Shown: positions 7,912 to 55,227 of the stretch, piece by piece
Layout of the letters: every line of letters starts with the position of its first letter
Position numbering within the stretch: position 1 is the stretch's first letter
NCBI GenBank assembly: GCA_964016885.1
Contig: OZ024742.1
Coordinates: 274,412,001-274,476,000, forward strand
Direction of reading: 5' to 3'
From: Eledone cirrhosa
Taxonomy: Eukaryota
Length of the DNA: 64,000 nucleotides
Translations under genes and position numbers: made by a program
Notes under the pieces: generated by a model
Database searches by the model: none
What the model was told of the DNA's origin: nothing
Seen by the model: the letters and a program-made list of their open reading frames with translations, nothing else

Positions 7912-9065
7912 TGGGGATTCTTTTCTTTAATTCGTGCCTCTCCTTTGTTCTGACCTACGCTATCTTGTTTTTGTGTGTGTTGTGTGCTTAGTTTTCGTAT
8001 GTGTTACATCCGGGTGTCTGTGTGTGTTTTTATTTGTTTATTTATTTTCTTTATTTACATGTTACTGGTTTGTTGTTTGTTCTGTGTGTGTTTTCACTTT
8101 GTCCTTAATTGTAAGTTGCGATGTTGCTATTCCATTCATGTTTTCTACTTAATGTAGGCTATATTCTTATCTTTACATTGTCCTTCAGTAAATATTATGC
8201 TATATACTATGTTTCTAGTTTTACAGTTAATATGGGGGCTTAGTTTACAGATTATGCATTTCTTATCTATACAGGGGGATTCTTTGAAAAGGGTATGTAT
8301 TAATAATAAGTGTTTTATGGAGGTACCTGGTCTTTCTACTATCTTAATATTAAGTTTAAGTTTATCTAGCGCCCTTCTAAATTGGTAAACTAAATCACCT
8401 CTAGGGGTTGTATTGATGAACATTCAAAACACTTATTAGTAATACATACCCTTTTCAAAGATCCCCCTGTAGAGATAAGAAATGCATAATCTGTAAACTA
8501 AGCCCCCATATTTACTGTAAAACTAGAAAGATAGTATATAGCATAAGATTTACTGAAGGACAATGTAAAGATAAGAATATAGAGTTCATAGGTGAGACAG
8601 CTCGTAGTATAGGTGAACGGTTAAATGAACACTGGCGACAGTTTCAAGATAGAAAAGAATCGTCAATACTCCACCAACATGCTAAAATAGAACATAAGGG
8701 CAAATTAGAGAACATAGAAATAAAAATAAAATCTACAGACAGAAAAGACGCAATGTTTAGACAAATCACAGAGGCAAAAAACATAAATGAAGTCCAATTA
8801 AAATTAAACAGAAAGCATGAATGGAATAGCAACATCACAACTTACAATTAACGACAAAGTGAAAACACACACACATAGAACAAACAACAAACTAGTAACA
8901 TGTAAATAAACAAATAAATAAACAAATAAAAACACATACATACACCCGGATGCGCAAACTAAGCAAACAACAACACATGCGCAAACTAAGCACACAACAC
9001 ACACACAAACAAGATAGCGTAGGACAGAACAAAGGAGAGGCACAAAACAAAGAAAAGAATCCCCA

Positions 9066-12469: not shown

Positions 12470-14052
12470 ATTAACAAAATAGATAGTTTAGATACTCAAA
12501 TGACTCTATATTGTTATAAGTGTTTGATATTCCCTGGAAGCTGAATTTATATAATGATTTTTACTTAATTTAATATAATTTAATTTAATTTAATTTATTT
12601 TAATTAAATTTAGATTACCTTCGGCTCTTTCAAATATTTAGCTCCTCTTTCTATTACATTCGCTAAAATATTTTAGACGTATCTTGTGTCTACTATATAT
12701 TAAAACCCTATTACATTTATAATATATTTTTAATATTGGGCATTTTTAAGTTTCGCAAACAATTCATTTTTATTTTTTATTTCATATTTAGTTTGTATCT
12801 AGCCCCTATCATTAGGTCTCATGTAGTTTTGACTTATATGTTTATAGTATATATCAGCTAAATGAAAATAATTGATATAAAACATTAATTTTTTAACAAT
12901 ATTTTTTAACAATATATTTTAACTATATATATTTTTTAACAATATTTTCAGTAACTAATTTACTATATTGTACTATTGTATTATATAATATATATTTGAA
13001 AGATATCATCTTAACTCTTAAGACATTATAATCCTTATATTTTTTTTTTATTAACACATATATATAATTAAAAATTCAAACTTCTTTAAGTTTAGTTATA
13101 AGGCAGGTTGATCCTTTAGGCACTCAAACTATTTAATCATAAATTCTTTAATAATTATAACTATTATTATTTTATAAATTATATTATATTTTATAAATTA
13201 TATTATATTATATTGTTGTCAATATTATAATTAATTTGGGTAAAGATTACCTTCGTGAGGGTATAAAAGCATTATATATATTCTTTCTCGTGTTTCGTAA
13301 ATCCTTTAAATTTGTTTTCATAAAATTTGAATTTAAGAAATTAAACTTGATAGTATAATATAATATTAATACAAATACCTATTAACTTTTAAAACCTAAA
13401 ATATTGCTCATTACTCTGAAATAAGTTAAATTAAATATTTTGAATATTAACGGCCAACTAAATAAATTTGGATATATATTGCATATAAGGATAATTGTCT
13501 ATAAATTTGAACATAAATTACTCCCCTTTGGCTCTCTCTCTCTTTAAACATCTTTCATTTGTTTTTCGAGGCACCTACTAAATATATTATCCCATCAGCT
13601 GTTTCTTCCTCTATGCTTTCCTTTCTTTCCTCTTTCTTCAGTAGTTTAAAGAAAGAATTGTTTTAACTGTTATATTGATGCCATGTATTTTTTAAGCTGT
13701 ATTACACGCACCCTCTCTATTGTTTGTATTATATATGTTTCTCATGTTCTCAATATTAGAGTATAAATATTGAGTTTTGTCATATGTTAATCACTACTAT
13801 GACTGAATCTTAACCATCTACTATGCCAGGGAATGTCATGCATCATCTTATTTTATCTGATGAGGACGTACTGTTGAACTTAACATAGTAGCTCTGAAAT
13901 ATGTATAATAAAATATACTTGATCACAAGAATATCTATTTTGTTAAAATTTTGAATTAATATTAATAATTCTGGAAAACCTTAACGGTTGAGTGCTTCCA
14001 ATTTATTGTAAAACTCATTCTTTGATGTATTCATTGAACCTTGTTTAACTTT

Positions 14053-15017: not shown

Positions 15018-15267
15018 ATACTGTATTGTTTATTATACATTAAATATTTTGCTCTGTAACTTACATAGGGCACTCTTTATTTTTCAATTTTCAACGGAAA
15101 CTTCAATATATATATATACATAATAGTCAATATAATGGAGAGAGGTAAACACAGATATATATACATATATGTGTTCAAATCATAAGGGACCAGATTCGTT
15201 AGGGTGAATAGGATACTAACTATGGACAATGTGGTGTGTGTATGTGTGTGTATGTATATATATATAT

Positions 15268-16725
15268 ATTGCTTTAGTTAGGTCTTTCCATGACGACATG
15301 AAGGCTTGGGTTAATGTCGGAGGTAACATGTCGGAGCCTATCTCAGTAAAAAATGGAGTGAAACAGGGGGATATTCCAGCACCGACCCTGTTTGCCATAT
15401 ACTTTGCAATGGTTTTCTGTATTGCATTCAGGAATTGCGAGCATGGTGTTTACATCCGATATCGAACCTCAGGCAGCATATTTAACATCAGGCGCTTTGC
15501 TGCGAAGACAAAAGTATTTACATCAGTCATAAGAGACCTCTTGTATGCAGATGATTGCGATCTTGTAGCACACACAGAGAGTGATATGCAGCACATTTTG
15601 AATGTATTTTCTGACGCTTGCACTGCCCTGGGTTTGACTGTCAGTCTCAAGAAAACCGTCGTCATGTACCAACCTGCACCTGGTAGGCAGTACACTGAAC
15701 CAAACATCTATGTGTATGGCAAACGACTTGGAGTGGTTGATCAGTTTGTCTACCTGGGAAGCACTGTCAATCGATACGGCAACCTTGACAGTGAAATCTC
15801 ACTTAGGATTAGGAAAGCAAGTGATGCTTTCGGAAAGCTAGAAAGGCGACTCTGGGGTCGGCGAGACATATGCAGGAGGACAAAGGTAAAGGTGTACAGG
15901 GCATGTGTACTCTCTTGTCTTCTTTATGCCTGCGAGACCTGGGTCACATATCGACGCCACCTTAAGCAATTGGAGCGTTTCCATCAGATGTGTCTCAGAC
16001 GGATACATGGCGTTCGCTGGAGGGACCACATCAGTGATGTCGAGATTTTGGAAAGCTCTATGTGTGACAGTATAGAAGCTCTTGTGCTTAAGCAGCGACT
16101 CCGTTGGAGTGGTCACCTTGCCAGGATGAAGGATTCTAGAATACCAAAACAACTCTTCTATGGAGAGTTGGTTAAAGGAAAACGACCGCCACATAAACCA
16201 AAAAAGAGGTATAAGGATTCCTTGAAGGCCTCTCTGAAAGACGCTAACATCTCTGCTGATACATGGGAAAATATTGCTGCTGATCGTAATAAATGGAGAA
16301 AGACTGTATATGAGGGAAAAGTTGCCTTTGAGGCATCTCGAATCGCACACGAGAAAGTAAAGCGGGACGTGAGGAAGGGTATTGCTGTTGCACTTCCAGA
16401 CGGCGAGGGTCCTCCTATGTTTCTGACATGCAGCGTCTGTGCGAGACTCTGCCTAAGCAAAGCTGGACTCGAAAGTCATCTTCGCAGTCATAAAGTAAGA
16501 CCAGTGGTTGACTACCAGGCTGCTGTTGGAGATGCTACTCATCATGCTTGCCAAACATGTGGTAGAGAATGTAAATCAGCAGGAGGACTCAAGCGACATG
16601 CAAAAGTACACGAACTCCAACCACAGCCGACTATTCCCAGTAAATGTTTTGGTTGCCGACTCTGTGCAAGACATTTTGGATCATTGGCTGGGCTAAAAAG
16701 CCACATTCGATCGCAGCACTGTTAG
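15268..16725 (+). CDS. RTE-clade LINE ORF, 5'-truncated: reverse transcriptase plus three C-terminal C2H2 zinc fingers
   Basis: Open frame with GVKQGDIPAPTLF, LLYADD, FVYLGS, LLYACETW, RLRWSGHLARM, PKQLFYGEL and three CxxC-x12-Hx3-4H fingers. 3' end tggc...gcca stem plus (CAT)n tail at ~16948-16983. Confidence 0.93.
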   Translation: MALVRSFHDDMKAWVNVGGNMSEPISVKNGVKQGDIPAPTLFAIYFAMVFCIAFRNCEHGVYIRYRTSGSIFNIRRFAAKTKVFTSVIRDLLYADDCDLVAHTESDMQHILNVFSDACTALGLTVSLKKTVVMYQPAPGRQYTEPNIYVYGKRLGVVDQFVYLGSTVNRYGNLDSEISLRIRKASDAFGKLERRLWGRRDICRRTKVKVYRACVLSCLLYACETWVTYRRHLKQLERFHQMCLRRIHGVRWRDHISDVEILESSMCDSIEALVLKQRLRWSGHLARMKDSRIPKQLFYGELVKGKRPPHKPKKRYKDSLKASLKDANISADTWENIAADRNKWRKTVYEGKVAFEASRIAHEKVKRDVRKGIAVALPDGEGPPMFLTCSVCARLCLSKAGLESHLRSHKVRPVVDYQAAVGDATHHACQTCGRECKSAGGLKRHAKVHELQPQPTIPSKCFGCRLCARHFGSLAGLKSHIRSQHC

Positions 16726-18199: not shown

Positions 18200-18283
<84 letters not shown>

Positions 18284-18374
18284 ATTTTTATAACTGATAT
18301 AAAGCACTCAACAAGTTAGTGGAGTAAATACACAATATATTAATAAATGGAAGCTATATTTATAAAACCATATT

Positions 18375-18440
18375 TATTTTATTATATATATTTCAAGGGT
18401 AACCAAGGCAAATTATGGTGCGCTCTCATCAGATAAAATA
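18375..18440 (-). ncRNA. Hammerhead ribozyme (family A)
   Basis: TATTTTAT-CTGATGA-GAG..ACCA...TGGT..CTT-GAAA-T atat A-TA-ATAAAATA; palindromic loop III. Confidence 0.75.
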
Positions 18441-19670
18441 CAGATTTGTTTTATAAATAAATATTGACATACCCGGAAAAAAGGCAACCTTAACGGTTGG
18501 AGATTCCTGGATAGTGGAGATAATATTTTATCGAGGGTAATACAAAGTTATGAGTGAGTATGCAAATGAGTGTCCGAAAAGTTGAAAAGATAACGGTTTA
18601 TTTAAATTAAACTGTTGGAAGAAGATGATATGCAAGGGAGAGAGAAAAAAAAGAAGAGGAAGGAGAAAGAGAGAAGAGGAAAGAAAGAACGATTATACAT
18701 AGAGATAGTGGAGATAGACGGAGATAGACAGAGTGAATGAAGAAATAAGTTGTAATGGAAAAATATACATAGCGTAAATATAGCCAAGTGAAATAAGAAG
18801 TAAAAGAAGAAATAAGATTAACGTGGAAGAATAATATTTAGAATGTAGGGTTCATTACGTTGTGATTATAATATTTATAATGATAGGTTGAAAAATTAGA
18901 TTAAAATTTAAAATTAAAAATCAAAATTAAAGATTAAAATGTCCCTTAATATTAAAGATTTAATTTAATATTAATATTAAAAATTAAAACATTTAAAAAT
19001 TAAAAATTAAAATTAAAACAGGAGTATTTATTTTATATTAAGATGCATTAGTAATGATATATTTATATATCATTACTAATGCATCATTACTAATACATAT
19101 ATGTGTATGTTATGGATTATAAATTATTTAAATAAATATATAGTATTTTACATTAGAGAAAATCTAGTATAGTTTATTTTATTAAAGTAAGTTTGGCAAA
19201 ATTATATTTATTAATAGTTGTAAGTCAACATCCAAATAATTCTAAATTTATGAAAATTTACGAGAGTTTACAAAGGAATAACTATTTAATTATATTATAA
19301 AAACAGTAAGGAAGTATAAAGGAAGTTAGAAGTGATTTGTTAAGAACTCAAAAGAATCCAAGGATACATAAAAAAACTTTTCGAACAAAAATTTTTAATT
19401 TTTTTTTTTTTTATGAGAAGTCATAGACGATATAAAGTTAAACAATTTTTTTCATTTCTTTTTTTCTCTCTCCCTTACATATCATCTTCCAACAGTTTAA
19501 TTTAAATAAACCGTTATCTTTTCAACTTTTCTGACACTCATTTGCATACTCACGCATAACTTTGTATTACCCTCAATAAAATATTATCTCCACTATCCAG
19601 GAAGCTCCAACCGATAAGGTTGTCTTTTTTCAGGGTATGTCAATATTTATTTATTTATAAAACAAATCTG

Positions 19671-19736
19671 TATTTTATCTGATGAAAGCGCACCATAATT
19701 TGCCTTGGTCGCCCTTGAAATATATATAATAAAATA
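19671..19736 (+). ncRNA. Hammerhead ribozyme (family A)
   Basis: TATTTTAT-CTGATGA-AAG.GC.ACCA...TGGT.GC..CTT-GAAA-TATATA-TA-ATAAAATA. Confidence 0.78.
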
Positions 19737-19776
19737 AATATGGTTTTATAAATATAGTTTCCATTTATTAATATAT

Positions 19777-19836
<60 letters not shown>

Positions 19837-20858: not shown

Positions 20859-21202
20859 TATATATATATGCGTGCGTGTGTGTATATATATTTATATATA
20901 TATATATATAAAAACAAATAACGAAACGAAATTAAATTTCGTTTCGTTTGTAACTCACTTTTGTATGACTGACGCTTAAACAATTAAGTTAAAAATGTAC
21001 ATCCACATATGTATACTGAAATACTAGTATGCATATGAATACACACACGTATACATATGTAGATGTACCGAGTTTTTCACTGGTCACTTTACTGTGAATG
21101 TCCAGCTATTCTGTATGTAAACACACAGACAAACCGGTTTTTAGAGTCATACTGGTTTTTGAGGAAACACCTTTCCTCTATTCTGCAGAAAGCCAGACAA
21201 GG

Positions 21203-21247
21203 AATATTGAACTAGTTTCGATGTTGTTACATCTCATCAGCAATATT
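21203..21247 (-). ncRNA. Minimal type-I hammerhead ribozyme (466-bp family)
   Basis: AATATTG-CTGATGA-GATG taacaa CATC-GAAA-CTAG-TT-CAATATT; palindromic CTAG loop. Confidence 0.9.
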
Positions 21248-21668
21248 TACCTATCTTCCGGCCTTTCTAGAGAATCGTAAAAGCACATATCGTTATATGC
21301 TTTTTCTATGAAAATTAGTAGTGGGCAGACTAATTTGCATAGAGCGTGAGTACGTACCGGTTCAACGGAGACGATAAAAACAAATAACGAAACGAAATTA
21401 AATTTCGTTTCGTTTGTAACTCACTTTTGTATGACTGACGCTTAAACAATTAAGTTAAAAATGTACATCCACATATGTATACTGAAATACTAGTATGCAT
21501 ATGAATACACACACGTATACATATGTAGATGTACCGAGTTTTTCACTGGTCACTTTACTGTGAGTGTCCAGCTATTCTGTATGTAAACACACAGACAAAT
21601 CGGATTTTAGAGTCATACTGGTTTTTGAGGAAACATCTTTCCTCTATTCTCCAGAAAGCCAGACAAGG

Positions 21669-21713
21669 AATATTGAACTAGTTTCGATGTTGTTACATCT
21701 CATCAGCAATATT
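21669..21713 (-). ncRNA. Minimal type-I hammerhead ribozyme (466-bp family)
   Basis: Identical to 21203-21247, 466 bp away. Confidence 0.9.
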
Positions 21714-22152
21714 TACCTATCTTCCGGCCTTTCTAGAGAATCGTAAAAGCACATATCGTTATATGCTTTTTCTATGAAAATTAGTGACTCTAAAAACCGG
21801 TTTGTCTGTGTGTTTACATACAGAATAGCTGGACACTCACAGTAAAGTGACCAGTGAAAAACTCGGTACATCTACATATGTATACGTGTGTGTATTCATA
21901 TGCATACTAGTATTTCAGTATACATATGTGGATGTACATTTTTAACTTAATTGTTTAAGCGTCAGTCAAACAAAAGTGAGTTACAAACGAAACGAAATTT
22001 AATTTCGTTTCGTTATTTGTTTTTATCGTCTCCGTTGAACCGGTACGTACTCACGCTCTATGCAAATTAGTCTGCCCACTACTAATTTTCATAGAAAAAG
22101 CATATAACGATATGTGCTTTTACGATTCTCTAGAAAGGCCGGAAGATAGGTA

Positions 22153-22197
22153 AATATTGCTGATGAGATGTAACAACATCGAAACTAGTTCAATATT
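22153..22197 (+). ncRNA. Minimal type-I hammerhead ribozyme (466-bp family, inverted copy)
   Basis: aatattgctgatgagatgtaacaacatcgaaactagttcaatatt. Confidence 0.9.
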
Positions 22198-22419
22198 CCT
22201 TGTCTGGCTTTCTGGAGAATAGAGGAAAGGTGTTTCCTCAAAAACCAGTATGACTCTAAAAACCGGTTTGTCTGTGTGTTTACATACAGAATAGCTGGAC
22301 ACTCACAGTAAAGTGACCAGTGAAAAACTCGGTACATCTACATATGTATACGTGTGTGTATTCATATGCATACTAGTATTTCAGTATACATATGTGGATG
22401 TACATTTTTAACTTAATTG

Positions 22420-22452
<33 letters not shown>

Positions 22453-22459
22453 GCGTGTG

Positions 22460-22684
<225 letters not shown>

Positions 22685-22942
22685 TACTCACTCTACTAGC
22701 CTAAGTATTGAGTACTCTGGTGTGTTATGGTCCATCTGGTTCCTTACCATATTTCCTTCGTTATATATATATATATATACATATGTGTGTGTATGTTTAT
22801 GTTCATATATATATATGAATGTATGCATATTATATTTGGCAAAATACCGTATGTTCAATTAAAAACATTTTGAAGACCTTACGCTATCATTTTAAAGTAG
22901 TGACTATGTCACTTACATCTTTTCGGCGAAAGAAAACAGAGA

Positions 22943-22984: not shown

Positions 22985-23378
22985 ACGTACTGCGTTCTTC
23001 CGCCGAAAATGATAGATGCTGGATTCTTATAGAATTCCAGTAATAATCAGGAGCTGATTATACAGAGCGATTGACAGTACAGCAAAAATTAAGTATTAGG
23101 ATTGCTGCTCTGAAATAGTGATGTATACATGAATGTATGCATAGTATATTTTGAAGACATTACTCTATCATTTTAAAGTAGTGACTATGTAACTTACTTC
23201 TTTTCGGCGCCAAATATACTATGCATACATTCATGTATACATCGCTATTTCAGAGCAACAATCCTAATACTTAATTTTTGCTGGACCCCCAATCGCTCTG
23301 TATAATCAGCCCCTGATTTTTACTGGAATTATATAAGAATCCAGCTTCTATAATTTTCGGCGGTGAAGCGCAGTATGT

Positions 23379-23420
23379 TACACTGATGGTTGCCGAAAAG
23401 CATGAAACAGACTATTAGCA
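23379..23420 (+). ncRNA. Degenerate hammerhead (314-bp family)
   Basis: CTGATGG-tTGC cgaaaa GCAt-GAAA-CAGACTA-TT-AGCA. Confidence 0.5.
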
Positions 23421-23692
23421 TCTCTGCTGTCTTTCGCCGAAAAGATGTAAGTGACATAGTCACTACTTTAAAATGATAGCGTAAGGTCTTCAAAATGTTT
23501 TTAATTAAACATACGGTATATTGCCTAATATACTATGCATACATTCATGTATACAGCACTATTTCAGAGCAGCAATCCTAATACTTAATTTTTGCTGGAC
23601 TGGCAATCGCTCTGTTTAATCAGCTCCTGATTATTACTGGAATTCTATAAGAATCCAGCCTCTCTAATTTTCGGTGGAAGGGCGCAGTACGT

Positions 23693-23734
23693 AGCTCTGA
23701 TGATTGCCAAACAGCAAGCAACAGACTGTTAGCT
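23693..23734 (+). ncRNA. Hammerhead (314-bp family), A13C change
   Basis: AGCT-CTGATGA-TTGC caaaca GCAA-GCAA-CA gac TG-TT-AGCT. Confidence 0.65.
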
Positions 23735-24294
23735 TCTCTTCCTTCTTTCGCCGAAAAGAAGTAAGTGACATAGTTACTACCTTAAAATGATAGCGTAAGG
23801 TCTTCAAAATGTTTTTAATTAAACATACGCTATATTGCCAAATATACTATGCATACATTCATGTATACATCGCTATTTCAGAGCACCGATCCTAATATAT
23901 ATATATATATATATAAACATATGTGTGTGTGTGTGTGTGGTTTTCTGCTAGCATGTGTTGTCTGTATATTGATATTATACGCAAGCATATATGCATGTAG
24001 ATATGATACATCAAATAAAATCGTAATTGACAATATACACAGAAATTGAACGAAGACTGTGTTATGTAATCAGTAACGTAATCCATGATACATTTAAAAA
24101 ATACAATATTATATATAAACTGCATTAGGAGAAAATTAGTGACAGAAATATATGAATATTTATTTAAACGATCGCTAACCGGAAGTGTTGAAATTTGAAA
24201 ATTTTAAAGAAGTGAATCTTTAAATAAGAAATAAAATACATTTAATGAACAGCCACCAAATTTTGTAGATGAAATATGTAATATTCATTCATTC

Positions 24295-34518: not shown

Positions 34519-34582
<64 letters not shown>

Positions 34583-34842
34583 GGAAGAGAATGAATCACA
34601 ATTTCATTTCTCACTCTTAGTACAGCTGATACTTAAATACAAATATGTATACATACATATATGTATACAGACGTACAGTAGTATGTATATATATATACAT
34701 ACATGCACACATATACATATGTACGTATAAGTTTACCGAACATTCATTATAATGTTCGATTTGTTTGTAAACAAACAGCCCGAATTACGCCGTACAGTGT
34801 TTGGCAACCATCGTCGCCCTTTTGTTCAACACTGACAAAGGA

Positions 34843-34885
34843 ACGATGAACAAGTTTCAAGCTTATTAGCTATCGTCAGCATCGT
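34843..34885 (-). ncRNA. Minimal hammerhead (426-bp family)
   Basis: ACGATG-CTGACGA-tAGCT aata AGCTt-GAAA-CTTG-TT-CATCGT. Confidence 0.8.
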
Positions 34886-35268
34886 ATACCTTCCTGTCAG
34901 ATGATTGAACGTTTGAAAGTATATACTTTCCTGATGCATATTAACGACTGAGAAGCCTAATTTGCATATCGCGTGAGTTAGTCGGCCGGGCGTGCCGAAA
35001 ACGATAAATGGAAAAGAATGAAACGAAATTTCATTTCTCACTCTTAGCACGGCTGATACTTAAATATAAGTATGTATACGTACATACATATATGTATACA
35101 GACGTACAGTAGTATGTATATATATACATACATGCACACACATATATATATATGTACGTATGGTTTTACCGAACATTTAATATAATGTTCGGTTTGTTTG
35201 TAAACAAACATCCCGAATTACGGTGTTCGGCAACCATCGTCGCCGGTTTGTTCAACATTGACAAAGGA

Positions 35269-35311
35269 ACGATGAACAAGTTTCAAGCTTATTAGCTATC
35301 GCCAGCATCGT
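35269..35311 (-). ncRNA. Minimal hammerhead (426-bp family), A6G change
   Basis: As 34843-34885 but with core CTGGCGA. Confidence 0.65.
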
Positions 35312-35440
35312 ATACCTTCCTGCCAGATGATTGAACGTTTGAAAGTATATAATTTAAGTATATACTGGACTATCCAGGAAAAACCTGAACAGTTAAGTTA
35401 TTATTTCCTACTTATGTCAATATTTATAAAACAAACTTTG

Positions 35441-36324: not shown

Positions 36325-36397
36325 CATACATATACGTGTTTTGCAACGGGTCACTTTGTGGCTCAATGAAAAGTCAATAAATTTAATAATCAGAGCT

Positions 36398-37015
36398 ATA
36401 TATCATAAAACATGTCTATAGAATCACCATATAATATATATACCATTTCATTTCCTAATTAGCATAACTAACTTTATAAAAAATCGAATAGACCAGGCTA
36501 TAAGAATAACGCTTCTATGAAGAAATCTCCAAAAAATAACCGAAACTAGCCCTTCGCGTCGGCCGCGACGGAATATTTATCGAATATTTCGACAGCGTAA
36601 TCGCCCAGATACAGTCAATTAAACAGAATTAGGTGTAAAATAAACTAGGAAAAAATAGAATAAATTTGTTTACCTCTACCATGGTTTCGTCTGCATTTTG
36701 AGATTTCCAGTAACTTTGGAAACTCGAGCATCGGACTCTTCAGGAGTTTTGCTCTAATCCAGACATTAAATTTTCCAAAGTGATCGCGCCAATTCTGTTT
36801 AATTGACTGTATCTGGGCGATTACGCTGTCGAAATATTCGATAAATATTCCGTCGCGGCCGACGCGAAGGGCTAGTTTCGGTTATTTGTTGGAGATTTCT
36901 TCATAGAAGCGTTATTCTTATAGCCTGGTCTATTCGATTTTTTATATAGTTAATTATGCTAATTGGGAGAGGGAATGGTATATATTTTATCTGGTGATTC
37001 TATAGACATGTTTTA

Positions 37016-37022
<7 letters not shown>
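36398..37022. repeat. Foldback: ~235-bp inverted arms around a ~160-bp HHR-containing spacer
   Basis: ~36398-36630 is the reverse complement of ~36790-37022. Confidence 0.92.
36674..36746 (-). ncRNA. Type-I hammerhead with extended stem II
   Basis: CTC-CTGAAGA-GTC..TGC..GAG.TTTCCA...TGGAAA.CTC..GCA.GAC-GAAA-C catg G-TA-GAG; palindromic CATG loop. Confidence 0.8.
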
Positions 37023-37083
<61 letters not shown>

Positions 37084-37899
37084 TTAATACATTAACAGAG
37101 AAAGCTTTAAGCGATACTCTGACCAACTCACTCAACAAACATTAGGATATACCTAAGTATAATCCCAATTAAGTGTTTGGGTGCTAACTATATAGTATTC
37201 CGGATAGTTGGTTGTATTATTTTATATGAGACATAATTAAATAAATCTCTCTTTCTTTCCATACGATCGTTTCGTTATAAGTTTTCTACAAGTTGGGATA
37301 AATAATGCCCAAGTTATGTAGAAACTTGTATATAATCCATAGATATACACACAAGCGAGCCCTTATAACAGTTAATGCTCATGCAATATCTATATAAAAA
37401 ACTACATCGATACTAATAATCAGTGATGGTCTCCGTCAGTGCTAGAAGGACAGCTAAATTTGAAAAGTCAGTAGTTCTTCAAAAAGAAAATTCACACTGT
37501 CCCCAAAAGGGAAAGGGGATGTCATCGTAAAATATAAAATAATATACACGCTGGTCATTGGAGCCTGTTAGGTATTTTAACCACGTGTTTACGAACTCAA
37601 TTGAATATTAAAAGAATAAATATATGTATGTACCATTTATACACACATAGAGATATTAAAAAAGTAACAAATATATGCACACACTATCTATACATACATA
37701 TAGGTATTTTCTCAGGCAAAAATATCAGACATAAGATACAGGAAAATGCAATCAATATTTCATATAAAGAATTAATAAAGTCATACCTAAATATCTGGAA
37801 TTTTCATATATATATATATATATGTAGTTATAGATGGCGAGGGCCATATTGTTGTAATAATATTGCCAGAAATAATAACAGAACACACTTACTGTTAGG

Positions 37900-40740
37900 T
37901 TGGTTTTGGCTTCTGTATCTTATATGTATCCACAGTTAATTCATTTGGTCATCAATGCTTATCATTGACTGACCAACGGTCAAAATTACAGATATCATAT
38001 AGATATAAACACATATATAGTCTAACAAAGTTCTTTCGTTGCACATCTGCAACATCATCAGTGGTACTATTATGTTCCTCCTGTTGTATTGTATGTCTAT
38101 ACTATTTTTATTTTATCTGTTTGTTTATTTAATAATTTTTGTCTTCTCTGCGCATGCGTTTGCGTGTGTGTATAGTGTTTGGTGTGTGTTCGCATTTGGG
38201 TGACTGTGTTTTTGTTATTGTATTCTATCTTAGTTTACTAGTGTGTGTTTATATGTGTTTGTTGTTATTGTGCTTGTATATATATTTATTTATGTATTTA
38301 TTTATTTATTCATATTTCTCTTAAGTCAGTATTGTTTGTTTGGGTATTGTTGTTATTCCATTCATTTTATTCTGTTTAACTTTGGCCTTCTAAGCTCTAT
38401 TTAGCTTGCCTCCCTGATTTGCCTCTCTGCTGGGTCATTTCTATGTTTAGATATTATTTTAATTTCTATGCTGTCTATGTTGTTGTTGTCTGGAGTGTTA
38501 GTATAGTACTAGACCGTTTTTCGTCCTTTTAATTCTCCCCTGTGTTGGTCTATCCCTTATCCTATGCTTCGAGCTATCTTGCCTATGTATGTTGTTGTCA
38601 TGTTTCTGCAAGTACCCTCTGTACATCTTATGCTATAGACTACGTTTCTAGTTTTACAGTTTATCTGGGGGTTTACTTTACATATAAAACACTTCCTATT
38701 AGTACAGTGGGTTTTCTTAAAAGGATACGTGTTGCTGATCAGGGATTTTATGGTAGTTCCTGGCTTTTCTACCACTTTAATATTTAAGTGGGTCTTTCTC
38801 AGGGCCTTTCTACACTGGTTAGCTAATTTTCCTCCAGGGGTAATGTCCACGAACATGACACTCTGGTATTTCTGGTTGTCGTACCATGAGGTGGCCTTCC
38901 CTAACTTGTGTTTAGTCCTATGTAAGCTATTCCATGATTTGCTTCTGTATAATTGGCAAATTCCTTTCATGTCCAGTTCTATGAGGGTCTTAAACTTCTC
39001 CAGGGCTCCTTTGTATACCCTGATTCTGTCTCTTTGGTTATAGCTAGAGAACTGCATGCGATTGATGACGTGTTGTATGTATCTTTCCATTTCTGTTGGG
39101 TCGCACATGCGAGACACGTTCTTCATTACTCGTACCAAGTCTGCGATCAGAATATTAAGCTTAGCACTACTGGACATTGCTGAGATTAAGAATATCAGGT
39201 ATTTGGAGGCCATGGATTCAGCGTAGTGTGAGTGGAGAATTTGGGCCCTCTCGTCTATAGTGTTAATCCAAAGTTCCGTGTCTAATAAAGGTAATCTACT
39301 GTTAGGGTGTTTGGAAGTGTAGTCGATCGTTACAGTTATACTCTGGTGTATGGAGTTAGCTGTCTGCTGGATGCTTTCCATTGTGCTACATTCTAATTCA
39401 TATTCGTTAGTACTGTCTTGTGGGGGTTTCCTTATTACTATATTAATATCGTCTACGTAACAAGAGTACATGATGAGCTCTATGGAGCTCTCATCAAGGA
39501 GTTCTTTGAGTCTCCTTTACCACCATGCCATAAAGAGGTTGGCAACGTCACCAGCTATGCTGATGCCAATGGCTGCTCCCTCATTTTGGGTGTAGATCTT
39601 TTCGTTGAATTTGAATATGTTGCCCTTAGGGTAGTTTTAATACTAGCTTCTATTGCATGTGCGACCATTTTCTTATCTGATCATTGTTTTTTGGGGGTCC
39701 GTATGGCTTTGATCATCCCAATCCACCTTCCCATGGGAGTCTTTTTTGGCATTGAGGTTATGGTGGGGATTCTACCTCTTATGGGTCTACTGGGGTAGAA
39801 ACGGCTAAGATCATGGCTGTCTAGGTACACGGTGTCATAGGTAAGTCTAAGTAGGTGGCCCAGTTCATCTGTGTCGACATCGCAGAATGCCCACTCACTC
39901 TCACTAATCATCTCCAGACATTCTTCCACAGCAAATTCAACGTTAATGGTTGGGTATAGTGATACCACGTCCATACTGCCTATTATGCAGTTAGATAGGT
40001 TTTTGTTTTTGTTTTTGTTGCACTCATTGATTCTGCTGAGGAGGTCTTCTGTACTGTCACATATATCTGTGGACATCTTCATTATGGGGCGTATAACCAT
40101 TGAGAGGAAGTAGGAGATCCTGTATTTGCTAGCGATATTGGCTCCGCATACAAGTCTTGTTGGTGGTCCTGTTGTCGGGTCGTCGACTGTCTTATGGTCT
40201 TTGCAGAGACCATAAACAGGTGGTATGTCATTGTTAGACGCCTGGATGTTGTTGGCAGAGCATCTGCTTGGCTTTAGGATGTCTGTCCACATAATCATGT
40301 TAGCGTCGAGGATCTTCTCTTTCCCCTCATGGGTTTGTTGTGTGATTTCGCTCGTGTTGGTGATGTGGCGTTGCATAGCCTTGGTGTAGTTAGGCATGCT
40401 CTCTATCGACATTCTACTAGATTTATCTATGGGTAGACACACTACCTCACCATCCCTTGTGCGCTGATTGAGGATAACTAAGCCTTCTAAAGGTTTCCTT
40501 CCAAGTTGTTGGACCTCTTGTCTGTTTTGTCTCTTAGTATATCGGTCTACTATTTGTCTACTCTTATTTCTAGCGATGGTGAACTGTGCCTCTGTCTCGT
40601 CATCTATTTGTTGTGGTATACAAAACCTTTTATTAAAGGGTAACCTCGTAGCATAAATTTTACTCATCTTATATGTTTTGTCAGCTGGGTTGCAGTATAG
40701 TTTCTCTAATGGGTTGTCATTATATCTATCGTCATATTTG
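37900..40740 (-). mobile_element. Penelope-like element, degenerate RT plus GIY-YIG with 3' pLTR
   Basis: ORF pieces 39681-40667 (IDKSSR, YGLCKDHK, PTRLV, GSMDVVSLYP), GAAIGISIAGDVANLFM, and 38557-39471 (YVDD, LPLLDTELW, CKTRNVVYSIRC..YIG..ARSIG). Related to 7706-9290. Confidence 0.92.
38024..38065 (-). ncRNA. Minimal hammerhead in the pLTR of the adjacent PLE
   Basis: ACCA-CTGATGA-t-GTTGCA gatg TGCAAC-GAAA-GAAC-TT-TGTT; same GAAAGAACTTTG as the 7869 and 9066 motifs. Confidence 0.72.
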
Positions 40741-41279
40741 ATTGTTATATATAATTGTTATATATATATATATATATATGTGTATCTGCAGTTGTGAATG
40801 TGTGTCTACAACGTTTCGCTAGCCAACAGAAACATGTCTGATACAATGTACTACTCTCCTCTTAACACCTCCACCAGTAGAAAAATGAGTCAAAATAAAA
40901 AAGTAATTAGGTTCTGCCTACACTTCTCACCCGATATTAGGAACCCATGTAGATATTAAATTCTTAGCACTCCTAGACGAGCACTTACGATAGGTCATAA
41001 ATACTTATCTATCTCCTATAGATGTATATATGTATGTTATATTAGAAGTGAAAATGATATGATTAGATAAAATAAAGTAAAATGCCAGAGATGAAAGAAA
41101 TTTAGTGAGAGAAATAGAGAGATAGAAAGTGAAAGATAGAGATACATAAAATGTGAATGTAAATATAAGAGGTTTTGATGTTGGTTAATTGATAGACGGT
41201 GACAGTTATAACAATAATGATGATGATGTGATATTATAATAGATCTAAGTGGTACAATTTGGGTTATGGAATAGATAAG

Positions 41280-46879: not shown

Positions 46880-49772
46880 CACTCAAGCAGGACATTCTTT
46901 ACTCCTTAAGATACGTGCATATAACAATGTCCCTGCCTTAGCTTCAATTGGTTGCAAACTTATGAGTACCCCAGGATTTAGTCCCACATTTAAGATCCAA
47001 GATAAGACCAAGATTTACGCTACTCTACTTCTATGATCATGAGCTTCAGAATTGTTTGCATCATGTTAATTTAGATGTTGCCGTGCTGCAGGAGCTACAA
47101 GACGTCTTGCCCTACGGCAACACCTATATAAGAAACTTCAATGCAGACATTGAAATGCCAGTCTCTGAAAATGTGAATATTTTCCTTCATGCTGACAAAA
47201 TAAAACACACTGATTTTCATTGTCGCACTTATAATCTTCCTATGGTATCTGAGATTGCATTAAGTGCTTGGATGTCATCATTCATAAAAGATATGATGGT
47301 CTTCAGAGGATTCATCAGTTTCACCTTTATTATGATCCTCTGTATTATGTGTTCCTGTTTCCTTGGGGGAATGATGGGTTGTAGGTTGGTTTGAAAAGGA
47401 TTGACAAAAACCACGCACTCACACCCACTGATTTCTACTGTTAACGGTTTCAGGTTAGGCAATATGCTGTTGATGCAACAATATGGTGTAGATGTCCATG
47501 AAAAAATAGAACATTGTCGACTCAAATGGACCCACACAAATCAAACCATGATACGAGATCAAAATTATGAGTGTTTGTACAATGCTGTGGCTGAAGGAGA
47601 TTTAGTTATTGCAGGCTGGAGATTTGTTCTTCCTCCTTCAATCTATGGGTCCCATCGCTTCTACATTAATTGCTTCCAGAATTCAATAAATGCGGTTGGA
47701 CACATGGGAAAGCCATCCTTTTTCATCACAGTAACAGCTAACCCCAACTGGGATGAAATAAAAAATAATTTGCACCCTGGTGAAGAAACTAGGGACCGTT
47801 CCGATATTTGTGCAAGAGTCTTCAAGATTAAGTATGACAGCCTCATGGATGACATAATGAAAATACATGTCCTAGTAAAGGTTGTGGCTTATTCTGCTAC
47901 AAAAGAGTGGCAAAAATGAGGCTTCACTCATATTAGTATTCTAGTGATAATGGCTGAAAATAGCAAGCCAAGAACTGTAGATGCCATTGATCAGGTAGTG
48001 TACTGTGAGATTCCTGAAAAAGGGACTAATCCAATTCTGCATAAAAGCATCACTTCCTGCAACATTCATGGCCCTGGTGGACAAGCTAATATGATGTGTT
48101 CATATATCGAACGGCTAGGACTACAACGCCATTGATCAGAATGTTTTCCTAAGGCATTCAGACAAACTAAATTGTTGGCCGAAAATTCCTTTCCGGAGTA
48201 TAGAAGAAGGGATAGACAGCATGGTGGTCACACCCATACAATCCAACTTAAAGGTCAAGAATTAACCGTTGGATTGTTCCATACCAACCTTTCCTCTCAT
48301 TGCGATATCAGTGCCACTTCAATTGTGAGGTTGTCCTCTGTGCCAAGAATGTTAAATACGTATATAATTACATCACAAAAGTATCATACACGATCACTTT
48401 CATCATTAAGCATGGTCAAGGAATTAGTGAACATGTACAAAATGAGATTGAGACCTATATCAATGCACGGTACATCAGAGCCAAGTGAATCATTCTGGAG
48501 AATCTATAAATTTCCGTTAAATCAAAGGAAACCGCAGGTTGAAACGATGGCTTGCCATTTACCTGCGGAACAAATGGTCGTGTATGAGCTAGGGTAGGAA
48601 GAAAGTGTGGTTTCTAGGAGACAGCCAATGACTATATGTTGACGGAATATTTCCACCTGAATATTATAGACCTACAGGCACAAAATATATTGTATATTGA
48701 TATTCCTAAATATTTCACTTGGACAAACAAAATGTAGCAAAGAAGTAAAAAGGAACATCTGGATCGTGATCAACAATTTATGAGTGAATCTCTTGGAAGG
48801 ATTCCAACAATATCTTTCAGTAGACATCAATCGGAATTATATTACAGGATGTAGGATGATCCTACATCACAAGGTTGGGTCAACTTGAAACAAAGATTTG
48901 AAGACAATTGAAGGAGTTGAATTTCCCACATTCCAAGAAGCATCAAGTAAACTTATTCTGTTGAATGAAGATGGAGAAAAAGACAAATGTATGGAAGACG
49001 CCTCATACATTACGCGTCGTCCTCAACTGCAAGAGATCTTCTGCAACATTTTATTCTACTGCATACTAAATGACCCTCTGCAGTGCTTGAAGAAATGAAA
49101 GAATTGTCTTGCACATGCATGAACGTCCTGAGCAAGTCATGTCCATGCAAACCATGCAGATCGTTCTACAGAAGATCCAACGAAAACTTCAGCATGATGG
49201 CTTAGACATTCATGTCAACTAAGAGCTTCCTCGGCCAGACACTACTAGTATTGCCATACCAGAAATCAACAGGGTTCTTATGGCAGGAACTGATTTCAAT
49301 ACACAACGACTGAAAGCAAACATAAATGAATTTCTACCAACATTAAATCCTGAGTAACTGATTATATTTCACAAAGTAATCACCTCTGTATATGAAAATG
49401 AAGGTAGAATCTTCTACTTGAATGCAAGTATAGTCACAGGAAAGACCTGTCATCAACATCATATTGGATTAACTCCGATCTCTAAAACAGATTGCACTTG
49501 CCTCTGTCATATCTGGAAGAGCAGCCACTTTGCTTCACAAAGGTCAAATTCTTCATTCCGAGTGCAAGATTCCTCTCATTGTGACTGCTGAATCAACTTG
49601 CTTCTTCACAAAGCGGGTTGCCATAGGAAAACTTATCCAGCAGGCTGACCCGCTGATTATTGATAGATAAGTATGGGACATAAGAATATCCTCGAATGCC
49701 TTGATAGGAGCTTCAAAGATATTCGAGATTGCAAGAAGACATTTGGTGGTCTAACAGTATTACTATATGGGA
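46880..49772 (+). pseudogene. Degenerate Helitron RepHel (HUH Rep plus Pif1-like helicase N-terminal part)
   Basis: RAYNN..LASIG, YDPLYYVFLFPWGNDG, VLPPSIYGS, GKPSFFITVTANPNWDEI, EWQK*GFTH (HUH), NIHGP, PEYRRR, HFNCE..VKYVYNYITK, Walker A-like ..TGKT, SGRAATLL, LDRSFKDIR...FGGLTVLL. Many stops. Confidence 0.93.
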
Positions 49773-52824: not shown

Positions 52825-54190
52825 TGTTTCTTTTATTTGCCACAAGGGCATCAAAAGTGGGACAAGTACAATGGGGGGAGTTTACAAAACAAGGCGTCCT
52901 CAATAGGGAGGAGGCAATAACAATATATAAAAATAAAATAAAATATAACAAAAAATAGAATTATAACAAAATCCTCAATAGAGGATTTTGTTATAAAATA
53001 TAACAAAAAATAAAATTTATAACAAAATCCTCAATAGAGAGGAGGCGCCTTGGGGGGTCGCACACACCCCCGAAAAAAGTGTGCAACCCTTTTCCTCAGG
53101 AGCACAGAGAGGGGGGGCTCCCTCGTTCCTTCCTCTTTTCCCCCTACAGGCTCATGTAAAGAGAAGGCCCATTCACACGGGCCATTCTCGCCACTTTCAC
53201 CCACCTTTCATAAAAACGACTGGGGTGCAGCACCTCTCTCTCCATCCTGATCCTTCTTCCGAAATGATATCGGAAGAAACGGACCAGTTGTTGGCCAGAG
53301 AGAAAGGTGCCTGACCTCAGTCCTTTCAGACGCGTCCACCATACAACCTCTTTCGCCATGGCTATTACGCACAGAAACACCGCCTCTGCTTCATCTTTGA
53401 AGGGGGGAGGCGGCTTGATCATTACAATAGACTCGGTGGTCAACCGGATCGGTCCCACTCTTGACAGCAGTTGTTCGACATAGCCCCACAGATCGGCTAC
53501 GCCCGAGCAGTGTACCAATGCGTGTGCAACGGTTTCCTCGTCGCACACGCATCTGGGACAGATCTTTTTGGCGGGGTCCCTACCCGGGCGCCCGTGTCTG
53601 TAGAGCCTTTCTCGAACGGGTAAAGCTCCTCGGTAGCACTGCCAGGCCAGGGACTTCTGGAAGTTGTCCATAGGTCCCGGGCTGAATGTCCTACCGAACA
53701 GGCCGGCCAGTTCGTCCTCCTCCATGTCTAGGGCTTCTCCGAGGGCGTCGTCGCACCTGCTGCGTACCAGCCCTCTATAGAATGTTGCGGTGGAGTCTCC
53801 ACTGATAACCGGATCCGCCTGCCAGAGGGCGGCGGGCGCCTGGGCACACTCAGTGTGCCAGGCGCCCAGATTTCTCGGTCTTTGCTTGACCCAGGATTGC
53901 AGCTCGATGAGTGAGACGAGTCTGGGAAAGGTTCGTCTCACAAACGAGGCCCACACCGGTTGTCCGGTGAGGAATACGTAGAGGTGCCGTAGCCTTAATG
54001 CGTGTTTACGCATCATTAGCCACGGCATCCCCAGCCCTCCTTTCGAAGGGTGTTGACAGCAGATGGATTTCCTCACCATAGGAGCCCGCCTCTTCCAAAG
54101 GAATTGGAAGAGCGCGCGCTCCATCTTGGTGAGGATTTCCCTTGGGCAGGGCACTACGGTCAGGCGGTAGTAGATGACGGACGCTATATA
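52825..54190 (-). mobile_element. Tx1/L1-clade LINE 3' fragment with intact ORF2 C-terminus (53144-~54190)
   Basis: Open frame with FQFLWK...KGGLGMP, CPRC..DEETVAHALVHC (zf-RVT); 3'UTR ends with AATAAAAGAAAC. Confidence 0.92.
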
Positions 54191-55227
54191 TAGATAGATC
54201 ATTGATTTAATACCAGCTATCTACGTTAATTTCATAGTGTATTATACTCCTAACTGCGCTGATCGGAATCTCCTGTACACGGTTAGACTTTTCAATATTT
54301 CTTGTTTATATTTCCTAAAGTAACATTTTGACTATTGAATGTTCGATTTTGTATCACGAATGAGCTATTATTTGCTGAAAACCTCGTTATGTTTATATGT
54401 GTATATGCAGCTAGCTTGTCGAGTGCTTTGTTTGGCGCGAATTCCTTTGTTTGAATTCAACCGCCAAAACACATATTTTAGTCTAGACTAGATTCCTTCC
54501 TATTTCCCATTAGAGGCTGTGTGTCAGAATGGCTAGAACTACTTGTTTCCCTGTCCAGTGGTAACGGATACCCAACAATGTATAGACCTATCTTATGACT
54601 TGGGCAACCTGCTGATAAGTGTAACAGCCTGTTTACGTAAATATCGGCTGATATGTAATTTTCCGAAAATTGATGATCTTATATCTGCATTTGTGAAGAT
54701 ATTGCACAAAAACGATATCGTCCAGTAGTTCAGAATTTTACCTTTCTCTCTATCAAAACACAGCCACTGTATCTGATATTCACTAAATGTGTGCACTATG
54801 AACAGCTGATTGCAACTGCATTACTGAAATTCGGCAGATTCATTGAGCGACCTAGACATTGGCCGGAGATCGTTGATATAACACCAGTGATCTTCGTTAA
54901 TTTTATTATATATATATATATATGTATATTTTTTTCTTTAAAAAAATCTCATATTGAAAAAGAGAAATAGTTGACGACACCCGTACTTTCAAACATTCGA
55001 TCACTGAAGAGAAGAAAAACCCTCAGAGGTACACTAACATTTCATTAATTTTCCCCTTCTCCACTCCAATGTATATGTGAACTTAAACACTTGAGTAGAT
55101 ATGTGTAGATATATGTGTGTACAAGTGTATATGTATGAGTGCATATGTCTGTGTGTGTGTATATATGTGTATGTAAGCACGTGCGTGTATGATATATATA
55201 TATATATATGTATGTGTTTATATGTAT

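Follow-up and report, generated by a model that had tools for sequence, protein, structure and literature searches.

Animal retrozymes are a rich source of circular RNAs; what transcribes them and which enzyme reinserts them are open questions in the literature. [quoted passage not shown] RtcB-type ligation has been shown in vitro for axolotl and mussel retrozymes, and a short helix III and dimeric hammerhead cleavage are described in the accessible part of PMC4209133. The axolotl ribozyme HHR_Amex2, which has a U.U pair, shows weak cleavage on its own that improves in the dimer (PMC7229834, available text), and eight of nine predicted Xenopus retrozymes failed to cleave in vitro (bioRxiv 10.64898/2026.07.22.740005). 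The latter preprint argues for a PLE link, and the words promoter, tail and TATA are absent from its available text.

Hammerhead repeats with a promoter of their own have been described as well. Newt satellite 2, a hammerhead tandem repeat with an internal snRNA-type promoter used by Pol II, is a precedent for a promoter-bearing hammerhead repeat, and the schistosome hammerhead satellite contains a Pol III promoter inside its unit (both as cited in the available text of PMC2220036). EN+ PLEs, in turn, display 5′ truncation, partial tandems and inverted 5′ copies, together with a tail of 30–40 bp that is usually present at one end only, and the microsatellite bias of PLEs has been linked to the CX2-5CxxC linker (Craig et al., bioRxiv 10.1101/2021.04.23.441226, available text). 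A literature search of freely accessible main texts returned no report joining retrozymes with a U6-type promoter.

Two homologous retrozyme families in one window

The analysed stretch of 64,000 nucleotides from Eledone cirrhosa (assembly GCA_964016885.1, contig OZ024742.1, positions 274,412,001–274,476,000; referred to as the window) contains an insertion each of two hammerhead-bearing tandem repeats, i.e., family A (466-bp unit) and family B (426-bp unit). The family B insertion is composed of 271 nt, one complete 426-nt unit and ~81 nt, and is 5′-truncated within the TATA hairpin, with predicted cleavage sites at 34849 and 35275 (spacing 426 nt). TRF did not include this array in its list of tandem repeats in the window, and self-BLAST paired its two copies at 88.9%. 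The copies differ by 14% across 271 nt, which indicates an old, decayed insertion. The whole family A array (20908–22423) holds three hammerheads, one of them in its inverted half.

Table 1. Features of the family A, family B and Penelope-like insertions (window positions)
Feature	Position	Strand	Remark
Family B retrozyme insertion	34577..35355	-	1.8 units; long-site 3′ end, at monomer position 271
Full 426-nt B monomer, predicted cleavage site to cleavage site	34849..35274	-	
Type I hammerhead (B), intact core CUGACGA	34826..34912	-	core at 34879-34873; predicted cut after 34849
Second hammerhead copy (B), mutated core CUGGCGA	35252..35338	-	predicted inactive
12-mer TATGCAAATTAG (B)	34957..34968	-	same sequence as the -78 element of U6 gene L062
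TATA box (TATATA) (B)	34920..34925	-	43 nt after 12-mer start; also the loop of a predicted hairpin
57-nt block between short (214) and long (271) 3′ end sites (B)	35004..35060	-	
Second 57-nt block (B)	34578..34634	-	at 3′ end of the insertion
(TA)n microsatellite	34521..34579	.	abuts B 3′ end; inferred target
Family A (466-bp) insertion, first half	20908..21785	-	long 3′ end (position 302) at 20908
Family A hammerheads, first half	21187-21258 and 21653-21724	-	466 nt apart
Family A 12-mer, first half	21341-21330	-	
Family A insertion, inverted half	21785..22423	+	short 3′ end (~230) into (TA)n
Family A hammerhead and 12-mer, inverted half	22142-22213; 12-mer at 22059	+	
Decayed Neptune-type Penelope-like copy	37820..40757	-	left end approximate

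An earlier note on this DNA had proposed that the 426-bp unit is a diverged homologue of the 466-bp unit, and this was borne out by global alignment of the A and B monomers, which scored 242 versus 22.8 ± 13.6 (maximum 66.5) for 500 dinucleotide shuffles, at an identity of 71.6% (293/409 aligned columns). The homology persisted outside the promoter and ribozyme (z 12.3) and also outside the low-complexity, TA/CA-rich hairpin, with z values of 3.8 and 6.8 for the segments before and after it, respectively (0/500 shuffles as high). All ordered blocks that had been named were found in both units. The GGTA and CCTT said to flank the hammerhead are likewise present, with the refinement that they and the ribozyme lie on the minus strand.

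A and B are non-LTR retrozymes, a known class. Every unit contains a type I hammerhead with core, three helices and a GUH site, the tandem units are short, the copies are many, GC is below 50% (0.34 locally), no ORF of at least 150 aa overlaps the A or B arrays, there is no LTR (the ends run into (TA)n), and the circular monomers are predicted to be self-paired.

Thousands of A and B copies are present in the genome assembly of 3.0 Gb, dispersed across many chromosomes, and many variant copies were found in two sequencing runs (kind not stated). Family B yielded 4,089 first-look candidates genome-wide; a search pattern for the hammerheads of A and subfamily B2 matched 7,368 times (0 in the reversed control); and with a promoter pattern, 11,469 forward matches were obtained, of which those listed are mostly B-clade, the counts being inflated on one strand through overlapping matches. 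A total of ~2e4 copies is an estimate only. Family B comprises subfamilies B1, B2, B3 and D (D unit ~484 nt), and arrays of A extend to as many as 31 units, after which comes an inverted copy, with a divergence of 0–1.2% within and 0.9–4.9% between arrays. A third family was looked for through GGTA and GAAACT.GT; most of the 49 matches obtained were damaged A or B copies.

Hammerhead anatomy and predicted folds

Both the A and the B ribozyme belong to type I and combine a palindromic helix III of 2 bp (ACUAGU) with a UA bulge, a long lower stem I and a cleavage site of GUU, GUC or GUA. Among the 35 B ribozymes of loci L001–L030, 32 have an intact core and 28 the palindromic ACUAGU. In the window, the core is kept in the downstream B copy and mutated in the upstream one (CUGGCGA). 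Both window B copies read ACUUGU in helix III, and GAAACUUGUU of the window is a private variant.

Rfam gave no match in the window at gathering score. The family A ribozyme reached 36.5 bits (E 3.6e-6) against Hammerhead_HH9, which has a cut-off of 52 bits, and the family B ribozyme was not among the best 150 of 154 Rfam matches at E up to 10; nor was there a tRNA or 5S match to the units among the Rfam matches listed. The top entries at this E-value were miRNA models on TA/CA repeats, and were dismissed as noise.

The stem differences between A and B had been read in the earlier note as compensatory, and as a sign of selection on RNA structure. In 22 chosen A and B ribozyme sequences with a supplied 22-pair structure, 92.4% of the cells pair, versus 80.9 ± 1.1% in shuffles and 32–50% with slid partners, a measure that is inflated by the relatedness of the sequences. 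Double changes were found at eight of the 22 pairs (two in lower stem I, three in upper stem I and three in stem II), although their number does not exceed that of shuffles (417/500 as high), most of them being one A-versus-B event inherited by many copies. Compensation is upheld by these eight pairs and by the overall pairing, and reaches lower stem I, a stem absent from the earlier note, but it breaks down at the first pair of B stem II, where G-C is replaced by U.U (C.A in subfamily B2) and is not Watson-Crick. On the whole, the interpretation given in the earlier note is supported. The outer pair of B stem I is U.U as well, and the basal pair of stem II (U.U or C.A) may reduce cleavage of B. 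A table of helices across five hammerhead lineages also speaks for covariation; within family A, a stem swap from GATG/CATC to GTTG/CAAC was noted, and together with subfamilies B1, B2, B3 and D it agrees with the proposal of an old and diversified family.

Single-strand folds of the 87-nt ribozyme regions were modest (z -2.1, -1.1 and -3.0). Folding of the circular monomers, as the earlier note had suggested, revealed strong self-pairing, with z values of -13.1 for A, -9.9 for B (the window 426-nt monomer, at -130.1 kcal/mol) and -11.0 for D (25 shuffles each) and with 65–69% of the bases paired in A and B. Circular folds were weaker in B2 and in the lineages E and F described below (z -4.3, -4.2 and -1.3, respectively), and the antisense strand folds better than the ribozyme strand in B2 and E.

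A U6-type promoter element upstream of the ribozyme

On the ribozyme strand, the taatttgcata block of the earlier note is the 12-mer TATGCAAATTAG. An element of the form TATG[C/G][A/T]AAT[T/G]AG is situated at -77 to -79 in five type-3 Pol III genes of the host (three U6 promoter types, U6atac and RNase MRP), followed by a TATA box 47–49 nt after the element start; of the six U6atac loci viewed, the set takes in the one that is gene-like, and RNase MRP is represented by its only gene. The element was found in 0/18 distinct U1/U2 upstream regions. Six of the 18 U6 matches viewed are without it and look like retrocopies, it is displaced by an insertion in five U6 array copies, and the other five U6atac loci are without it and retrocopy-like.

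When the units were scored with a matrix of the five genes, the TATGCAAATTAG site was the best in each of six units (18.6–18.9 bits, ribozyme strand), with a chance expectation of ~3e-4 per unit, and A and B had not been chosen for this motif. In loci found without asking for it, the 12-mer was present with at most one mismatch in 271/272 A and 39/44 B ribozymes with the TATA region kept, overlapping loci being counted repeatedly. The order along the ribozyme strand is 12-mer, TATA box and ribozyme, and the window B 12-mer also resembles the elements of U6atac and RNase MRP. Within the 12-mer lies ATGCAAAT, which we take to be octamer-like. Since A and B carry the same upstream signal as the U6-type genes of their host, they likely drive their own transcription; judged from the sequence, we lean slightly towards the internal promoter being functional in A and B.

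Two other promoter assignments were rejected. The spacing from 12-mer to TATA (see below) might have marked a U1/U2-type Pol II promoter, but a matrix of this type, built from nine promoters, scored the repeats at -3.7 to -13.7 bits versus 6.8–29.7 bits in leave-one-out, and the ctcact..ctga..cttaaa block as a plus-strand PSE is not present in host U6, U1 or U2 promoters and lies between the 3′ end sites described below.

Several observations were made on the snRNA genes themselves. The U1/U2 genes L073–L100 have their TCAGT at -56 to -58, their TATA-like box around -31 and an AATTA around -88, i.e., signals quite unlike the U6-type element. The U6 and U6atac retrocopies L142, L143, L246 and L247 have 5′ ends that abut TA- or TG-rich repeats, and their insertion was perhaps the work of the same machinery. 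Finally, within a tandem U1 cluster, one U1 gene has a copy of the A retrozyme (L097:250-336) ~1.2 kb upstream of it.

A pattern combining the 12-mer, TATA and CUGANGA, with typical A and B excluded, gave 1,642 matches (control 0) and led to three further lineages, E (337 nt), F (338 nt) and G, whose hammerhead stems are distinct from one another. In F and G, the copies are decayed and their pairing is imperfect, and for the E and F bodies no homology with A, B or D was established (z 0.3–3.0). Because E, F and G were found via the motif, its conservation there is partly circular, and these lineages illustrate that the layout recurs rather than how often. The spacing from 12-mer to TATA is 43–44 nt in A, B, D and E, which is ~4–5 nt shorter than in the five host genes; it is 41–46 nt in G and 48 nt in F, the latter being the U6 spacing. 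Moreover, the units contain internal T-runs (T5 twice in A, T4 in B and T7 in D), and host type-3 genes end in T5–T10, so that plain Pol III transcription of a whole unit is doubtful, above all in D.

The shortened spacing and the T-runs would fit ordinary retrozymes without a promoter, transcribed by read-through from flanking DNA, in which RNA hairpins or a generic factor site would account for the retention of the 12-mer and TATA. This is the published default (PMC7761336, available text), the 12-mer and TATA do lie in predicted hairpins (the 12-mer being a hairpin arm in the predicted folds of A and E), and the motif is also found, reversed, in a Penelope-like end (window 18559 and 19548). 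However, A, B and D have one and the same 12-mer arm but differ in its pairing partner (TAATTTTCATA or TAATATGCATA), so pairing alone is insufficient as an explanation. Furthermore, the match to the element of five type-3 genes covers the full 12-mer and keeps its orientation, with TATA next and the ribozyme after it, and the spacing in lineage F is exactly that of U6. We regard retrozymes devoid of a promoter as a doubtful account of these families.

Further hammerhead-like loci were seen in the window. Inverted Penelope-like 3′ ends at 18280-19780, one long and one short, bear a small hammerhead (near 18444 on the minus and 19667 on the plus strand) and a reversed TATGCAAATGAG ~130 nt before the core; this small hammerhead family is also present at 13845, 44544 and 35445, the last adjoining the 5′ end of the B array. 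A palindromic insertion at 36340-37060 combines, on the minus strand, a motif resembling a type I hammerhead whose stem II is long (near 36755) with TATGCTAATTAG and an ensuing TATATA (at 36466), and is possibly a further lineage. A loose pattern picked up hammerhead-like motifs at 7919/9058, 10246/14939, 17116 and 33646, none with the 12-mer nearby.

Insertion ends and a candidate mobiliser

The 3′ ends were compared in 84 loci, after removal of 43 that overlapped another or duplicated the window. The 104 ends called were distributed over a short site (46 ends; position ~214 in B, ~230 in A and ~270 in D), a long site (41 ends; 271, 302 and 328, respectively) and a remainder of 17 that were cut, unaligned or elsewhere, and 78/87 ends at the two fixed sites continue into TA-rich DNA. 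The 5′ ends are variable, often flipping into an inverted copy. Both strands were represented at 20 loci, in 16 of which both ends could be called, and all 16 combined a long with a short end, as did 4/4 long inverted arrays (20/20 resolved inverted insertions in all). The ctcact..ctga..cttaaa block maps exactly between the two 3′ end sites: in B, it is contained in the 57-nt block that forms the one-sided tail of inverted insertions, and it is a one-sided terminal extension typical of Penelope-type insertion. Since the insertions sit in (TA)n, a target-site duplication cannot be read.

These ends also bear on whether the repeats might be a DNA-level satellite, amplified through unequal crossing-over or else rolling circles of DNA, in which the ribozyme would be a relic. 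DNA-level homogenisation can indeed yield long, near-identical arrays with the low internal divergence seen in A. We nevertheless consider such an origin highly improbable, given the dispersal over many chromosomes, the fixed 3′ and variable 5′ ends, the (TA)n sites and the strict long/short asymmetry, which holds even in 31-unit arrays.

The anatomy of PLE insertion is found in A and B, i.e., 5′ truncation, an inverted copy, a tail at one end and a microsatellite target. A decayed Neptune-type copy with a minimal hammerhead near 38060 is located in the window itself, and its family features an RT, a CX4CxxC linker and a GIY-YIG domain, with intact ORFs of up to 1,217 aa that have the GIY-YIG at their C-terminus. 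Pfam did not recognise the PLE fragments of the window, so the clade assignment rests on ORF motifs and on Craig et al. Like A and B, the Neptune-type Penelope has discrete ends in (TA)n, and 8/8 of its inverted insertions are long plus short (25 loci). The units showed no similarity in sequence to the 3′ region of this Penelope family (20 loci), the one PLE family compared, which makes it a candidate in trans. From these footprints, the Neptune-type element is the likely mobiliser of A and B.

The shared end structure raises another possibility, namely that the repeats are detached pLTRs of an unsampled autonomous Penelope family, whose own promoter and ribozyme they would carry. A precedent is offered by Xenopus, where 24/57 retrozyme families are homologous to Repbase TEs and 21/22 of the matched Repbase TEs are PLEs (bioRxiv 10.64898/2026.07.22.740005, available text), and the comparison made here covered one PLE family. 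Nevertheless, the B array is without an ORF of at least 150 aa, copies run into (TA)n or their own inversion and not into coding sequence, and the hammerhead of the PLE tested is another, minimal one, its 3′ region lacks the 12-mer, and it does not resemble the units. Detached pLTRs hence appear unlikely, and would in any case be compatible, as an account of origin, with promoter-bearing retrozymes copied by a Neptune-type element.

Other repeats of the window were recorded alongside. A 314-bp tandem repeat at 23010-23897 has an inverted part ending in (TA)n, a layout like that of retrozyme insertions, and no CUGANGA...GAAA match in a loose pattern scan. A short hairpin element (22570-22760; L131, L150, L181) occurs repeatedly in the same (TA)n tracts as retrozymes. 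The window further contains a LINE reverse transcriptase fragment with C2H2 fingers at 15220-16725 (+), a Helitron helicase fragment at 47395-47919 (+) and a zf-RVT-bearing LINE fragment at 53144-54220 (-).

Discussion

The units of A and B are homologous, share their ribozyme anatomy and 12-mer, and display fixed 3′ ends, variable 5′ ends and long and short inverted halves. The explanation that we consider probable is that they are retrozymes likely transcribed from an internal U6-type promoter and predicted to self-cleave to RNA of unit length, which likely circularises and is likely copied into (TA)n by a Neptune-type Penelope reverse transcriptase. Transcription would start ~30 nt after TATA, which in B is ~15–20 nt before the core, at the foot of the extended stem I. 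Read-through across two units would be followed by cleavage, with a dimer as the probable cleaving form on account of the short 2-bp palindrome of helix III, and a host tRNA ligase (RtcB-type) could then ligate the product into a circle. Target-primed rolling-circle reverse transcription from a fixed site would yield 1 to 31 units, and a second priming event would add the inverted half. Copies hold sequence upstream of the predicted start, so that a circular or multimeric template is needed; as only a circle or multimer carries the upstream promoter into a new copy, this would explain why the ribozyme is retained.

Neither window array has a 12-mer followed by two ribozymes, and both are consequently predicted to be dead ends; in the window B copy, a single ribozyme lies downstream of the promoter element. 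Longer arrays elsewhere could be sources.

In a broader reading, to which we give an even chance, at least five retrozyme lineages captured a host type-3 (U6/MRP) promoter within the repeat, cleavage and circularisation bring this upstream promoter along into new copies, and the circles were copied by a (TA)n-targeting Neptune through rolling-circle reverse transcription with twin priming at two fixed sites. If true, this would answer the questions of transcription and mobiliser in one genome, and the shortened spacing might mark a polymerase switch. The genome in any event gives a handle on transcription, through a mutable module of 12-mer and TATA common to U6, U6atac and MRP, and on the mobiliser, through the long-plus-short footprint (20/20) that matches a PLE family with intact ORFs. 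It also holds natural variants of the 10.1–11.1 hammerhead pair (G-C, U.U and C.A) in high-copy families, and a U6 promoter element of the animal was defined incidentally.

Compared with the metazoan non-LTR retrozymes of PMC7229834 (available text), A and B are alike in their type I hammerhead, their short, low-GC tandem units without LTR or ORF, their palindromic short helix III and self-paired predicted circle, and their coexistence with hammerhead-bearing PLEs. The presence of two related families, of which one shows U.U as the basal pair of helix II, resembles the axolotl pair HHR_Amex1 and HHR_Amex2 of the same paper. In contrast, the A, B and D units (466, 426 and ~484) are at or above the range of 150–450 bp given there, and the two-site fixed 3′ ends with one-sided tails are not described in the available text of that paper. 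A and B furthermore carry a host U6-type element, whereas retrozymes seem to be promoter-less according to the 2020 review PMC7761336, as far as its available text goes.

With Neptune and Nematis EN+ PLEs, as these are portrayed in the available text of Craig et al., A and B share their insertion anatomy, and the candidate partner has a linker of the CX2-5CxxC type. Unlike those PLEs, A and B are non-coding and have a canonical rather than a minimal hammerhead, their tail is 57–70 nt long versus 30–40 bp, and their arrays reach 31 units.

The closest parallels to a promoter within the repeat are the two hammerhead satellites introduced above. The promoter of the schistosome satellite, which Ferbeyre is said to have described in 1998, is reportedly tRNA-type. 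The A/B element is, in contrast, of the upstream type-3 kind, and no tRNA or 5S match to the units was among the Rfam matches listed. With respect to newt satellite 2, as far as it is covered by the available text of PMC2220036, the A/B element is of the kind found in type-3 Pol III genes and not in U1/U2 genes, and within a single genome it is shared by five hammerhead lineages.
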